Shown here: piece by piece, positions 2,456 through 29,137 of the stretch
Numbering within the stretch: position 1 is the stretch's first letter
Layout of the letters: each line of letters starts with the position of its first letter
DNA from: a virus
Lineage: Duplodnaviria > Heunggongvirae > Uroviricota > Caudoviricetes
Reading direction: 5' to 3' (one strand)
IMG/VR virus record: IMGVR_UViG_2541047931_000005
Location: 1 to 33,086 of that record
Length of the DNA: 33,086 nt
The notes under the pieces: model-generated
The model's input: the letters and a program-made list of their open reading frames with translations, nothing else
The model's database searches: none
Told to the model about the DNA's origin: nothing
Translations under genes and position numbers: made by a program

Positions 2456-3172
<717 letters not shown>

Positions 3173-3269: not shown

Positions 3270-3470
3270 ATGGAACAACGCATAACCCTGAAAGATTATG
3301 CAATACGCTTTGGGCAAACCAAGACGGCTAAAGATCTCGGCGTATATCAAAGCGCGATTAACAAGGCCATTCATGCAGGCCGAAAGATTTTTTTAACTAT
3401 AAACGCTGATGGAAGCGTTTATGCGGAAGAAATAAAGCCCTTCCCAAGTAACAAAAAAACAGCTGCATAA
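3270..3470 (+). CDS. cro: Cro repressor
   Basis: 66-aa [57 protein letters not shown]..., lambda Cro-like; AGGAGG RBS. Confidence 0.95.
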
Positions 3471-3607: not shown

Positions 3608-3904
3608 ATGACACAAGCAAGTTACAGCAAGCCAACACAGCGAGAAATTGATCGCGCAGAAACTGATTTACTCATCAACCTGTCAACGCTTACCCAGCGC
3701 GGTCTGGCAAAGATGATTGGCTGTCATGAATCGAAGATAAGCAGAACGGACTGGAGATTTATTGCTTCGGTCTTGTGTGCTTTCGGAATGGCATCAGACA
3801 TCAGTCCGATTAGCAGGGCTTTTAAGTATGCGCTTGATGAAATCACAAAGAAAAAATCCCCGGCCGCCACCGAGGATTTTAAGCAAATTGATATGCAATT
3901 CTGA
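3608..3904 (+). CDS. cII: CII-like transcriptional activator
   Basis: 98-aa ORF at the cII position; HTH-like core (SKISR) and a C-terminus [17 protein letters not shown] resembling lambda CII (KKRPAATERSEQIQMEF). Confidence 0.8.
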
Positions 3905-3936: not shown

Positions 3937-4083
3937 ATGACAAAACAACTCAGTCCTTACCAGGACAAAATTCACAAACACATACTACGTGATCGCTTCC
4001 TGTCCAGCTTCAAGCAGCCTGGTCGATTCCGGGCTGAGTTGGAAAAAGTGAAGCTGATGCAGAAGGAGAAAGGTCATGAGTAA
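3937..4083 (+). CDS. Small hypothetical protein (48 aa) between cII and the replication genes
   Basis: ATG at 3937 preceded by CAGGAG; stop overlaps the start of the O-like gene; below the 60-aa cutoff of the ORF track. Confidence 0.35.
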
Positions 4084-4936
4084 TCTTGCAACCGTAACAC
4101 ATTTAAGGCCTTCACAACGGCCTGTGGAGCGTCGTGTGGCAGAAGTTGAAGATGGTTATACCCGTCTTGCAAATGCCCTGTATGAAGAGCTTATCGGCGC
4201 AGATTTAACAAAAAATCAGAGTAAGGTTGCCCACGCCATATGCCGTAAAACATACGGATACGGTAAAAAGATGGATCGCATCTCTGATAGTCAGTTAGCT
4301 CAAATTACCAGGCTGCCAAGACAGAAGGTAAACAAGGCCAAGAATGAGCTTATCGCGATGAAGGTAATCCTTCGCGAAGGCCAGCAAATCGGGCCTAACA
4401 AGAACATCGAGGAATGGCAAATCGAAGGGTGTCACTACTCTGGTGATAATGTCACTGCATTGGTGACAAAAAGTGTCACCAAAACGGTGACAGCGCTGTC
4501 ACCAAAACAGGGACACACAAAAGAAACTATTACAAAAGAAAAAAGAAATAATAAAAACACTATGTCCGAAAGTGTTCGGACGGAGTGTGAAAAATCATCT
4601 GACCGTCACGAAGAAACCGACAAGGCATTCGAGGAAATATTCTGGTGTGCAGGCATGCGGAAAGCCGGGAAAAAAAACGCAGCTTCGGCATTCAGAACAC
4701 AGTTCAGGGAATGGCGTAAAACTACCAGGGGTACGGCAAGCGAGTTTGCCACGATGCTGGCAGAAGACATCGCATGCAGGAATGGTAAGCAGTTCGGATT
4801 CGACAGGTTGTTACCATCGAGCTACTTGAACGGTCAGCGCTGGAACGACGAAAAGCCAGAAACCATTCAACCACAATCCAAACCATCATCCGCAATCACC
4901 GTATCGAAAACTGGCTACGTGTTTTTCGACAGGTGA
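4076..4936 (+). CDS. Replication initiator with a lambda O-like N-terminal domain
   Basis: N-terminal similarity to lambda O ([26 protein letters not shown]...[15 protein letters not shown]...GPNKNI); ori-like iterons lie inside the gene. Confidence 0.85.
4451..4560. other. Putative replication origin: three 18-bp imperfect-palindrome iterons at a 23-bp period, then an A/T-rich tract
   Basis: GTCACTGCATTGGTGACA (4451), GTCACCAAAACGGTGACA (4474), GTCACCAAAACAGGGACA (4497), followed by an A-rich block 4515-4560, all inside the O-like gene as in lambda ori. Confidence 0.65.
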
Positions 4937-4939
4937 ACC

Positions 4940-5047
4940 ATGAAATCAAAAATCAAATCGCTACTGGTCGCTGGTTATAACCACGGCTGGTTAAGTATTT
5001 CGTTTGTCGATTTCTGGTTTAAAAATCTCAATCTGAGGGAATCATGA
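4940..5047 (+). CDS. Possible small ORF (35 aa) between the initiator and primase-helicase genes
   Basis: ATG at 4940 four nt after the O-like stop; its stop overlaps the primase-helicase start (ATGA). No recognisable family. Confidence 0.2.
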   Translation: MKSKIKSLLVAGYNHGWLSISFVDFWFKNLNLRES

Positions 5048-6924
5048 GGCCAAGTGAACTTAGCGACCTGCTTTGGGCGCAGGTTGACAGGGTGGCTCCG
5101 CACCTGTTGCCAAATGGCAAGAAAGAGGGGCATGAGTGGGTTGCCGGTAACGTCAACGGTGACAAGGGAAACAGCCTTAAGGTCAACCTTAGCGGCAAGA
5201 AAAAATGGGCTGATTTCGCTGAGGGAGACGGCGGTGACATGCTTGATTTGTGGATGGCATGTCGTGGAATTAACCTGCATCAGGCTATGCAGGAAGCGAA
5301 AGCATTTCTCGGTATCAAGGATGACGATCACCATTTCGATGCCAGACGTGAGAAGAAATTCTCCAGACCTGATCGCAAGAAAATCGCCCGCTACGTTACC
5401 AGAACAGAATCCCATCTTGAGTACCTGCAATCGCGTGGCATATCGCCAGAAGTCGTAAAGCGCTACGAGGTTGTCAGCGGCAAGGTGTGGAATGGAGAAC
5501 GAGAACTGGATGCTCTGGTGCTTCCGTACAAACGCGATGGTGAGTTGTTGCAGGTCAAGCGAATCAGCACTGAGCGCCCGGACGGGAAGAAAGTCATTAT
5601 GGCAGAAGGTGATTGCGAACCTTGTCTGTTCGGATGGCAGGCTCTGGACGCTGGCGTGAGGGCGGTTGTGCTTTGCGAAGGCGAAATTGATTGTATGAGC
5701 TATGCGCAATACGGCATCTCGGCATTATCCGTGCCGTTTGGTGGAGGGAAAGGCGCTAAGCAACAGTGGATTGAGTTTGAGTATCACAACCTCGACAGGT
5801 TTGAGGAAATATTCATCTCGATGGACGTTGATGATGTTGGTCGTGAAGCCGCAAGGGAAATCGCAAGCCGACTCGGTGAACATCGTTGCCGTCTTGTTAC
5901 TCTGCCGTACAAAGACATCAACGAATGCCTGATGAACGGTGTTACCGATGATGAAATCTGGCAGTACATCGGCACGGCATCCTACTTCGATCCTGAAGAA
6001 CTCTACAGCGCGCGAGAGTTTTACCAGGACACTATCAACGCTTTCTACGGCAAGCAGCAGTATCTGTTTAATCCACCGTGGGAATCTCTGGCAGATAAAT
6101 TCCAGTTCCGTGAGGCCGAGTTGACGCTGGTCAATGGTGTGAACGGTCACGGAAAAACGGAGGTTGTCGGGCATATGGCACTTGAGGCAATGCGTCAGGG
6201 TGTGAAGACGTGCATCGCGTCACTTGAGCTGAAGCCAGGCATTCTCCTTAAGCGACTTACCCGTCAGGCGACGTGCTGCAAGATGCCGCCAGTGCTGGAA
6301 ATTGACTCTGCATTTAAATTTTATGACGAAAGACTTTGGGTGTTTGGCCTGACCGGAACGGCGAAAGCCGACAGGCTGATCGAAATATTCGACTACGCTC
6401 GCCGCCGATACGGCATCCAGTTATTCATCATCGACAGCCTGATGAAATGTGGCATAGGCGACGATGACTATAACGGGCAGAAGGCGTTTGTTGACTCGAT
6501 TTGCGACTTCAAAAACAAAACAAACTCCCACGTCATTCTCGTTACTCACTCGCGAAAAGGAGACAGCGAAGAAAAACCAACCGGGAAAATGGACGTAAAA
6601 GGCTCTGGAGCGATAACAGACCTGACAGACAACCTTTTTATCATCTGGCGTAACAAGGCTCGCGAGAGAGCGTTACAGAGAGTTCAGAGTGGTGAAAAGA
6701 TGTCAGAGAAGGACGAACAGCTACTGGCGTCTCCTGCATCTGTTTTGATGCTTGAAAAACAACGTAACGGCGAAGGTTGGGAAGGTGGTGTCCCGTTGTT
6801 CCTTGACGAGCAATCGCACCAGTTCCTGCAACTTGAATCAGGATCGCCATATAGCTACATCGCCAATATGCCGAAATCGGAATATGACGAGGCGTGGCGA
6901 CAGGAAAACGTGACGGAGTATTAA
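5044..6924 (+). CDS. Bifunctional DNA primase (Toprim) / DnaB-like replicative helicase
   Basis: 626 aa; Toprim-like VVLCEGEIDCMSYAQYG in the N-terminal half; Walker A GVNGHGKTE and Walker B LFIIDSL in the C-terminal half. Confidence 0.85.
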   Translation: MRPSELSDLLWAQVDRVAPHLLPNGKKEGHEWVAGNVNGDKGNSLKVNLSGKKKWADFAEGDGGDMLDLWMACRGINLHQAMQEAKAFLGIKDDDHHFDARREKKFSRPDRKKIARYVTRTESHLEYLQSRGISPEVVKRYEVVSGKVWNGERELDALVLPYKRDGELLQVKRISTERPDGKKVIMAEGDCEPCLFGWQALDAGVRAVVLCEGEIDCMSYAQYGISALSVPFGGGKGAKQQWIEFEYHNLDRFEEIFISMDVDDVGREAAREIASRLGEHRCRLVTLPYKDINECLMNGVTDDEIWQYIGTASYFDPEELYSAREFYQDTINAFYGKQQYLFNPPWESLADKFQFREAELTLVNGVNGHGKTEVVGHMALEAMRQGVKTCIASLELKPGILLKRLTRQATCCKMPPVLEIDSAFKFYDERLWVFGLTGTAKADRLIEIFDYARRRYGIQLFIIDSLMKCGIGDDDYNGQKAFVDSICDFKNKTNSHVILVTHSRKGDSEEKPTGKMDVKGSGAITDLTDNLFIIWRNKARERALQRVQSGEKMSEKDEQLLASPASVLMLEKQRNGEGWEGGVPLFLDEQSHQFLQLESGSPYSYIANMPKSEYDEAWRQENVTEY

Positions 6925-7017
6925 ATGACCATCTACATCACTGAGTTAATAGCAGGCCTGCTGGTAATCGCAGGCCTTTTTATTTGGTGGAGAGTAATTG
7001 GAGGATTTAAGAAATGA
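6925..7017 (+). CDS. Possible small hydrophobic peptide (30 aa, single predicted TM helix)
   Basis: MTIYITELIAGLLVIAGLFIWWRVIGGFKK; its start abuts the helicase stop and its stop overlaps the next ATG. Confidence 0.3.
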   Translation: MTIYITELIAGLLVIAGLFIWWRVIGGFKK

Positions 7018-28934: not shown

Positions 28935-29075
28935 ATGAAAGTTAGAGACATCGCTCCATTAGGGATTCGTATCCCGCCAGAGATTAAAGAAAAATTGAAG
29001 GAAAAGGCTAAGGAGGAGGGCAGGTCTTTAAATTCAGAAATAGTGCAGCGTCTTATTCGCAGCCTAAAAAGTTGA
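28935..29075 (+). CDS. arc: Arc-like ribbon-helix-helix repressor
   Basis: 46 aa; [46 protein letters not shown]; RBS GAGGGG; directly upstream of ant as in P22. Confidence 0.7.
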
Positions 29076-29137
29076 AGCCCCAACTGCGGGAACAGTCAGG
29101 GCTTCGGTTGTCAGTAAATCCGTGGAGAAAAACCAAC

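Follow-up and report, generated by a model that had tools for sequence, protein, structure and literature searches.

A lambda-like origin inside the initiator gene, followed by a T7 gp4-type primase-helicase: anatomy and mosaic inheritance of a catalogued replication module in a P22-like lambdoid phage of Escherichia coli

In bacteriophage lambda the origin of replication lies inside the gene for its initiator, O, between the segments coding for the two domains of the protein, and consists of four palindromic iterons of about 19 bp (start-to-start spacing 20/24/23 bp), an A/T-rich block and, on the right, a further palindrome. The N-terminal half of O binds this origin, while the C-terminal half engages the protein that delivers the helicase. 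In P22, an O-type initiator with internal iterons (gene 18) has downstream of it a replicative helicase that the phage itself encodes (gene 12) and no loader, a lambdoid precedent for the use of an own helicase that supports independence from host DnaB (PMC8022706). The RefSeq record of phage ES18 lists an O-like protein (gp59), a 'rep_origin similar to lambda ori', gp60, and a 'putative primase/helicase; similar to phage T7 gene 4' (gp61), an annotation now about twenty years old; the epsilon34 equivalents of these genes (gp50-52) have also been described (PMC2629481). Here we analyse a module of the ES18 kind found in a DNA stretch of 33,086 nt (IMG/VR record IMGVR_UViG_2541047931_000005, positions 1 to 33,086; hereafter 'the window', meaning the whole stretch), which represents a P22-like (Lederbergvirus-type) lambdoid phage or prophage of E. 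coli. The module is made up of the genes that follow cII in the early-right operon (Table 1). For a lambda-like phage of E. coli the module is an ordinary one and already catalogued, and it probably works as in lambda up to the opening of the origin and then, free of any loader, through its own primase-helicase.

The whole module was found at 98–99% DNA identity, with identical iterons, in phages mEp043, Sf101 and vB_EcoP-720R6, and at 92% identity in the Salmonella phage SEN22. In these four phages the genes are named 'DNA replication protein O' and 'DNA primase/helicase'; the differences from the window lie in the immunity, nin and virion modules, with essentially nothing inside the module itself. 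The module is thus already known: several phage genomes in the databases contain it under the right names. It was also present in 298 of 5426 complete E. coli genomes (~5%). In ES18 and epsilon34 the C-terminal domain of the initiator and the primase-helicase are those of the window (97% and 94% identical in ES18), and the 35-aa gene, the A/T block and the inverted repeat on the right are shared as well, but the N-terminal domain and the iterons are of lambda specificity, in contrast to the TGTCAC specificity of the window.

Table 1. Positions in the window of the replication module, its parts and the neighbouring features (ORF, open reading frame; SF4, helicase superfamily 4).
Feature	Position	Strand	Remarks
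Lambda-O-type initiator, 286 aa	4076-4936	+	Phage_rep_O, TIGR01610
Predicted origin-binding N-terminal domain of the initiator	4133-4417 (aa 20-114)		
C-terminal domain of the initiator	4562-4936 (aa ~163-286)		type accompanying the primase-helicase
Four palindromic iterons, 19 bp	4430-4448, 4450-4468, 4474-4492, 4497-4515		TGTCAC-N7-GTGACA, 0-1 mismatches each
A/T-rich block, presumed DNA-unwinding element	4517-4559		A-rich on the + strand; 40-nt windows down to GC 0.15
Inverted repeat	4557-4588		core GTCCGAA-AGTG-TTCGGAC (4564-4581); stem 4564-4570/4575-4581; outer arms ACACT/AGTGT
35-aa gene, ES18 gp60 homologue	4940-5047	+	PHROG 21848 (E = 4e-26); stop overlaps the start of the primase-helicase
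Bifunctional primase-helicase, T7 gp4/Twinkle type, 626 aa	5044-6924	+	Toprim_2, AAA_25, PDB gp4, PHROG 239
Region of the DnaG-like ribbon (ribbon, aa ~26-92)	5044-5330 (aa 1-95)		
Toprim core	5668-5931 (aa 209-296)		
SF4 helicase domain	6106-6825 (aa ~355-594)		
Walker A	6136-6159		GVNGHGKT
Lys519	6598-6600		aligned with T7 R522
NinA-like hydrophobic ORF, 30 aa	6925-7017	+	27/30 (90%) identical to NinA of PhiR12_1
Hairpin resembling an intrinsic terminator	6954-6987	+	stem 6954-6977; inside the NinA-like ORF
DUF2740 ORF, 48 aa	3937-4083	+	Pfam DUF2740 (E = 9e-29); end overlaps the initiator start by 8 nt
cII homologue	3608-3904		
cro	3270-3470		
cI, lambda-type	2456-3169	-	
sar RNA match	29070-29137	-	Rfam, 95.6 bits

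The four iterons of the window lie within 86 bp, with a start-to-start spacing of 20/24/23 bp, and the GC content of the A/T block that follows them fell to 0.15 at 4520-4559. Both elements are contained in the initiator ORF, after the segment coding for the Phage_rep_O domain and before that coding for the C-terminal domain, so that the linker of the protein is encoded by the origin itself. The pattern TGTCAC-N7-GTGACA, with up to two mismatches, occurred six times in the 33 kb, against 1.5 ± 1.25 expected; none of 100 shuffled sequences reached six, and all four hits with no more than one mismatch were those of the 86-bp cluster, which is beyond chance. The iterons in the reference record of lambda start at 39034, 39054, 39078 and 39101, which gives the same 20/24/23 bp spacing. 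When the window, lambda and ES18 were aligned, the right half of the fourth iteron and the A/T block proved nearly identical base for base, reading CAAAACAGGG(G)GACACAAAAGA(A/C)ACTATTACAAAAGAAAAAAG, while the iteron cores differed (TGTCAC...GTGACA in the window and ATCCCTC...GAGGGA in lambda, where the complete unit is ATCCCTC-N5-GAGGGAT). Since the spacing is equal and the A/T block almost unchanged, the origin is, judged from its sequence, a homologue of ori-lambda and more than a look-alike; its predicted binding specificity differs, because the iteron sequence does. An earlier note on this DNA had already placed repeats inside the initiator gene, had seen the A/T-rich block after them and had likened the whole to the lambda origin, all of which holds. 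Its count of three 18-bp imperfect palindromes with an exact 23-bp period, however, has to be revised: imperfect palindromes they are, but there are four units of 19 bp, the first of which (4430) was overlooked, and the start given for the second was off by one base.

Within O-type genes, four palindromic units with the same A/T block behind them recurred in prophages of Proteus, Xenorhabdus, Pantoea, Pseudocitrobacter, Citrobacter, Leclercia, Providencia and others, with spacings of 20/24/23 bp ± 1 and primase-helicases 66–92% identical to that of the window. The iterons fell into at least six sequence classes (TGTCAC, ATCCCTC, TTTACC, TTACCC, TTAGC and GTAGCT), each with its own variant of the N-terminal domain, and the linker peptides encoded by the different classes were unrelated. 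The fact that the geometry is constant across iteron classes that encode unrelated peptides strongly argues for the repeats being protein-binding sites in a defined nucleoprotein structure. For the lambda iterons, binding by O has been established by experiment (Tsurimoto and Matsubara 1981, as cited in PMC8022706), and the iterons of the window would be bound by the N-terminal domain of its initiator. No description of the TGTCAC specificity class was found in the searchable literature.

The domain searches that the earlier note had proposed for both proteins identified the initiator as a member of the lambda O family, as had been claimed, with matches to Pfam Phage_rep_O (E = 1.1e-37; 128.8 bits, cutoff 28.7) and to TIGR01610 phage_O_Nterm (E = 1.6e-30; 105.4 bits, cutoff 45.5), and its partner as a protein with Toprim_2 and AAA_25 domains. 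The N-terminal domain of the initiator was 50% identical to that of lambda O, which belongs to the same Pfam/TIGRFAM family. In contrast, the C-terminal domain showed 17% identity to the C-terminal half of lambda O over 69 aligned residues, and is therefore not of the lambda, P-binding type. Lambda differs further in the sequence of its right-hand palindrome, in having the P loader where the window has a primase-helicase, and in the possession of Ren, which is absent from the window. The C-terminal domain of the window matched ES18 gp59 (97% identity) and PHROG 33384, and had no match in Pfam at E ≤ 10; a search of PDB sequences with the initiator returned no relative of solved structure. A large-database search with the C-terminal domain gave 80 candidates, nearly all of them partial proteins, which were used only for a small alignment. 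A structural model of this domain, consisting of a three-helix bundle and a disordered tail (predicted local distance difference test, pLDDT, 57), gave nothing below E = 1.4 when compared with the PDB by Foldseek. The C-terminal domain was also considered as a separate protein made from an internal start at the left edge of the palindrome (ATG, TTG or CTG). This found no support: no Shine-Dalgarno sequence is present there, and the exchange of Met for Leu is an ordinary substitution.

The inheritance of these parts can be followed in natural mosaics. The window combines an N-terminal domain that we term type W and TGTCAC iterons with a C-terminal domain of the type termed PH and the 626-aa primase-helicase. 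ES18 has a lambda-type N-terminal domain (87% identical to that of lambda) and lambda iterons, followed by a type-PH C-terminal domain and a primase-helicase. In lambda the N-terminal domain, iterons, C-terminal domain and P are all of lambda type, while PhiR12_1 joins a type-W N-terminal domain (100% identical) and identical TGTCAC iterons to the lambda C-terminal domain (100%) and P (97%), which Ren follows. Proteus phage BPM-V3 carries a type-W-like N-terminal domain (72%), four TGTCAC-N7-GTGACA iterons, a third type of C-terminal domain and a 456-aa DnaB-type helicase. In these sequences, the N-terminal domain of O was co-inherited with the iterons and the C-terminal domain with the partner protein, and the point of exchange is the common A/T block. 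The pattern agrees with the classical division of lambda O into an N-terminal half and a C-terminal half; for ES18 and epsilon34, the point concerning the N-terminal domain was made in the epsilon34 paper (PMC2629481).

Larger collections gave a similar picture. In 80 IMG/VR contigs with primase-helicases at least 99% identical to that of the window, three unrelated N-terminal domain types were fused in frame to the same C-terminal domain: type W, an HTH_36 domain with GGAGAAR repeats, and the lambda type. When loci were collected by their C-terminal domain, all those with enough sequence (77 of 77) carried the primase-helicase downstream, although these are close relatives and not independent cases. 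The HTH_36 initiators with the same C-terminal domain (L003 2400-2463 and IMG/VR loci L007-L086) contain GGGCAG-N3-CTGCCC palindromes 21–24 bp apart within the gene; the units, which translate as the GGAGAAR repeats, number from one to five depending on the contig, and are probably a different iteron class with a variable copy number. Primase-helicases 58–77% identical to that of the window were also found behind quite different initiators (L089 1845-2963 in E. coli, L099 2128-2892 in Enterobacter, and L111, L115, L120 and L121). One of these initiators, 372 aa long, matched nothing in Pfam, and its locus has no 35-aa gene; others have unrelated N-termini and retain a C-terminal YLNxxRW motif. 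To judge from such loci, many different origin-recognition proteins have evidently been paired with the primase-helicase.

The earlier note had described the downstream partner as a single 626-aa protein combining a Toprim primase with a DnaB-like helicase. This was supported by one continuous phmmer alignment that ran through both domains, matching aa 192-539 to residues 138-507 of T7 gp4 (5ikn, 6n7i, 1q57; E about 1e-23, and 2.5e-23 for the alignment with these residue limits), and by matches to human Twinkle (E = 8e-14) and to PHROG 239 'DNA primase/helicase' (E = 4e-171). In Pfam, Toprim_2 (E = 3e-12; 47.1 bits, cutoff 22.1) and AAA_25 (E = 2e-6; 28.0 bits, cutoff 27) were recognized, while DnaB_C remained under its cutoff of 27 (E = 3e-5; 23.8 bits). 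TIGR01391 dnaG matched the whole protein with E = 1.5e-9, the best stretch being aa 26-143, and the N-terminal ribbon matched Zn_ribbon_DnaG weakly and below the cutoff (E = 0.1). The EGEID, DxD and KDxNE motifs, the Walker A GKT, the catalytic Glu, the Walker B Asp and the motif-3 sensor His were all aligned to T7 gp4, at positions that we take to be E157/E159/D161, D207/D209, D237, K318, D424 and H465 of T7, and these catalytic residues were invariant in an alignment of 11 family members (69–100% identity). The protein thus shares with T7 gp4 and Twinkle, over a 350-residue alignment that keeps the catalytic motifs, a Toprim core fused to an SF4 RecA-type ring helicase, and would be expected to have both primase and hexameric helicase activities. 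It differs from them in its overall sequence (~25–30% identity), in a missing Cys4 zinc site and in a Lys replacing R522 (see below), as well as in its setting, a temperate phage with no polymerase of its own and a position downstream of an origin-binding initiator. The P22 gene 12 helicase differs in another way, being a DnaB homologue with no primase domain that uses host DnaG, while the helicase of the window is gp4-like and joined to a primase. The claim that the partner is not a P-type loader also stood: the 626-aa protein had no similarity to lambda P, and no P-like or DnaC-like gene lies in the stretch that separates cII from the nin genes, where a scan of seven ORFs (cII to DUF7301) gave no hit to a loader family. 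The family comprises at least 2115 proteins at E ≤ 1e-10 across the Enterobacterales, named 'bifunctional DNA primase/helicase' or 'toprim domain-containing protein' at NCBI. The protein ends in an acidic tail whose last residue is aromatic (...EYDEAWRQENVTEY), reminiscent of the tails with which T7 gp4 and SSB bind their partners.

The Stx2 phages (Stx, Shiga toxin) Phi24B, Min27 and F451 share with the window the C-terminal domain of O, the 35-aa gene and the primase-helicase, with ~97% DNA identity from about position 4552 of the window onwards, but differ in their N-terminal domain, which is the HTH_36 type with GGGCAG-N3-CTGCCC repeats. Their helicase also contains an intein of ~342 aa inside Walker A (GHGK, then the intein ending in HN, then T), with Hint and LAGLIDADG endonuclease domains, which results in a 968-aa 'P'; the intein-bearing loci are L158 1696-4602 (Phi24B), L159 1696-4602 (Stx2a_F451) and L003 2995-5903 (Min27). 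The Phi24B record lists O and a 'P' with a 'Gp4D helicase region'. In Min27 the C-terminal domain is out of frame and 'P' is split, which might be taken to mean that the C-terminal domain is a separate protein. This was rejected given that the genes are intact and in frame in Phi24B, F451 and ~20 IMG/VR loci; the frameshifts of Min27 are probably sequencing errors. The 'Eru' papers on the replication regions of Stx phages do not describe the pairing of O with the primase-helicase in detail.

An inverted repeat that the earlier note did not mention directly adjoins the A/T block on its right. Folded as single-stranded DNA it reached -11.9 kcal/mol (z = -6.9). Its pairing was analysed in an alignment of 16 distinct origins of the primase-helicase type, whose sequences are related. 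At pair 13-28, seven origins had C-G, six T-A and two A-T, and at pair 14-27 twelve had C-G and two G-C; the compensatory changes included a switch of a serine codon from TCC to AGC matched by a change from ACG to TCG on the other arm. Overall, 78% of the stem cells paired, compared with 11–36% when the partners were slid, and the covariation score was 0.204 against 0.074 ± 0.018 in shuffled alignments (none of 500 reached it) and ≤0.069 in slid ones. Position 15-26 of the stem was mismatched in 10 of the 16 origins. With sequences as related as these, the data are suggestive rather than proof of a core stem whose pairing has been maintained by compensatory change. In lambda and PhiR12_1 the position of the inverted repeat is taken by lambda's own palindrome, so the element segregates with the C-terminal domain and the type of helicase. 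A helicase entry site, a protein-binding site, an RNA hairpin and a leftward terminator-like signal are candidate roles for it. Together with a T-run it did score as a leftward terminator-like site, but the T-run begins 6 nt past the stem and leftward transcription is not known at this site, and this reading was kept as a minor alternative. No mention of the covarying palindrome was found in the searchable literature.

The junctions between the genes of the module are tight. The initiator and the 35-aa gene are separated as TGAaccATG, the latter overlaps the primase-helicase gene in an ATGA (5044-5047), the helicase gene abuts the next ORF as TAAATG (6922-6927), and a further ATGA is found at 7014-7017. 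The 35-aa ORF was intact, and exactly 35 aa long, at loci of Escherichia, Salmonella, Proteus, Xenorhabdus and Pantoea, where its product kept the pattern MK..IK..L..GY..G..S..V..WF..L.L; non-synonymous differences (pN 0.17–0.28) were well below synonymous ones (pS 0.45–0.87), the signature of a real gene under purifying selection. In a scan across species, ~28 of 40 genome loci had it together with the primase-helicase, even where the latter was only 58% identical or the initiator unrelated. Its absence from some otherwise intact modules (L089, L103, L107-L109, L119) makes the product look like an accessory factor. The 35-aa protein matched no domain family, and no mention of it was found in the searchable literature. 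In complete E. coli genomes of RefSeq annotated by PGAP (e.g. NZ_CP024886.1 318963-321811), the DUF2740, replication and toprim proteins are called and the 35-aa gene is omitted. The earlier note had regarded both this ORF and the one at 6925-7017 as tightly coupled to the replication genes. The junctions do abut or overlap, but the second ORF is, by its similarity, NinA, the first gene of the nin region, and lies outside the replication module rather than being a replication partner: in PhiR12_1 NinA comes after P-ren, and the equivalent ORF carries a NinA-like annotation in ES18 (gp63) and is called ninA in Phi24B and Sf101.

Taken together, these features suggest the following course of events. 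Dimers of the N-terminal winged-helix domain would bind the four iterons within their own gene, the 20/24/23 phasing permitting the assembly of an 'O-some' that would strain and open the adjoining A/T-rich block. The C-terminal domain of the initiator, which is not of the type that captures P-DnaB in lambda, would then recruit a self-loading gp4-type primase-helicase to the opened DNA, a step in which the 35-aa protein and the inverted repeat may assist. The ring helicase would unwind the DNA and the Toprim domain prime it, with host Pol III carrying out the synthesis. Host DnaB and a loader of the P/DnaC type would be bypassed, as would DnaG for priming and probably also the DnaK/DnaJ/GrpE step that releases P. 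Replication with no need of host DnaB, as the earlier note had proposed, is a reasonable inference given the intact SF4 helicase domain, the lack of a loader and the precedent of P22 gene 12 (PMC8022706).

Several observations weigh against this reading. All four ribbon positions at which zinc ligands are expected lacked Cys or His in 11 of the 11 family members; they read N/G...D-F-A-E, with D-F-A-E where C-F-G-C would be expected. The zinc domain of T7 gp4 is required for template-directed priming, and with a zinc-less ribbon the primase activity of the phage protein could be altered or lost. The arginine finger of T7, R522, aligned with a Lys that is invariant in the family. Structure predictions added no support: the model of the C-terminal domain is of low confidence, and the AlphaFold model of the primase-helicase, made from the 11-sequence alignment, had a pLDDT of 52, too low for a fold search. 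In some prophages (L089, L099, L103, L107-L109, L119), the primase-helicase follows initiators with no type-PH C-terminal domain, or lacks the 35-aa gene. A gp4-type helicase would also have to be coupled to host Pol III, and no experiments on lambdoid primase-helicases or on the DnaB independence of this family were found in the searchable literature. The most specific form of the proposal, namely a loader-free hand-off in which the O-some recruits the zinc-less gp4-type enzyme through its C-terminal domain, the 35-aa protein and the covarying palindrome specify this step, and the ring is coupled to host Pol III, is accordingly put forward as tentative and, on balance, doubtful.

The ligand-less ribbon invites the explanation that the 626-aa protein is a helicase only, its primase half inactive or repurposed, and that host DnaG makes the primers. 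Apart from the 11 family members with no zinc ligand and the sub-threshold match to Zn_ribbon_DnaG, this is favoured by the example of human Twinkle, which is primase-dead. Twinkle, however, has also lost the catalytic residues, unlike the protein of the window, whose Toprim acidic residues are invariant among relatives 69–100% identical. The ribbon-like domain is itself strongly conserved (W55, D57-F-A-E-G61, G64-D65), which indicates selection for some function of it. We therefore regard a pure helicase as unlikely, although the zinc-less ribbon may be compatible with priming either by the phage enzyme or by DnaG. An explanation of comparably low probability assigns the recruitment to the 35-aa protein, which would act as an adaptor or loader linking the O-some to the enzyme, a functional analogue of lambda P on a small scale, with no direct contact by the C-terminal domain. 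The gene is translationally coupled between the two others, is under purifying selection and follows the primase-helicase to distant relatives, even where the initiators are unrelated. Against this, it is absent from L103 and L119, in which O stops shortly upstream of the helicase gene, and from L089 and L107-L109, which have a different initiator, and is therefore dispensable at least in those lineages; its product resembles no domain family, and T7 gp4 loads itself with no loader at all.

The possibility that host DnaB is still the replicative helicase, with the gp4-like protein serving as a primase, an accessory helicase or a factor that recruits DnaB, has a single argument on its side, namely that tau normally links the Pol III of E. 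coli to DnaB and that the phage encodes no polymerase. It seems very improbable, since the SF4 domain is complete (Walker A and B, catalytic Glu, sensor His), the operon contains no loader that could capture DnaB, and in the mosaics the primase-helicase is exchanged one for one with lambda P or with a DnaB homologue of the P22 type. Least probable of all, to the point of being hardly credible, is that the repeats in the initiator gene are a by-product of a repetitive linker peptide and not binding sites. The iterons do translate into a linker of VT-K/A repeats, but every unit is a palindrome in the DNA, four copies and the 20/24/23 phasing are kept across six unrelated iteron sequences with unrelated peptides, the iteron sequence switches with the type of N-terminal domain and not with the C-terminal one, and the equivalent units of lambda are the O-binding sites cited above. 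An origin opened as in lambda and then served by the phage's own primase-helicase remains the preferred reading.

Around the module, the order of genes is that of a lambdoid early region. A small gene between cII and O, such as the DUF2740 ORF, is common in lambdoid phages, and a DUF2740 gene upstream of O is also annotated in ES18 (gp58), 720R6 and PhiR12_1. The label 'tail protein' given to this ORF by PHROG and PGAP is a misnomer; its position between cII and O makes such a function very unlikely. A scan of the module against Rfam matched no RNA family. Inside the NinA-like ORF there is a hairpin resembling an intrinsic terminator (AGGCCTGC...GCAGGCCT then TTTTATTT), plausibly the tR2-type terminator known from the nin region. 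The virion genes of the window resemble those of podoviruses of the IME10/APC_JM3.2 type. Further away, a match to sar RNA, the antisense RNA of P22 immI, indicates a P22-type immI region alongside the lambda-type cI and cro.

The value of this module as a discovery is small, since it has been deposited and named at 98–99% identity and its architecture is on record for ES18, epsilon34 and the Stx2 phage Phi24B. Its modest value lies in a clean comparative illustration of lambdoid modularity, in which the N-terminal domain goes with the iterons and the C-terminal domain with the helicase, with exchange in the A/T block; the TGTCAC class, the 35-aa protein and the covarying palindrome are incremental points. 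The biology to which it draws attention comprises the needs of such phages for host DnaB, DnaC, DnaG and the DnaK chaperone system, the roles of the 35-aa protein and of the palindrome, and the coupling of a gp4-type helicase to Pol III. The module is carried by about 5% of the complete E. coli genomes and by major Shiga-toxin phages, and its host requirements have some applied relevance because the production of Stx depends on prophage replication. If the loader-free hand-off were true, a common prophage module would offer a natural and genetically tractable primosome of the T7 type that works with the E. coli replicase.

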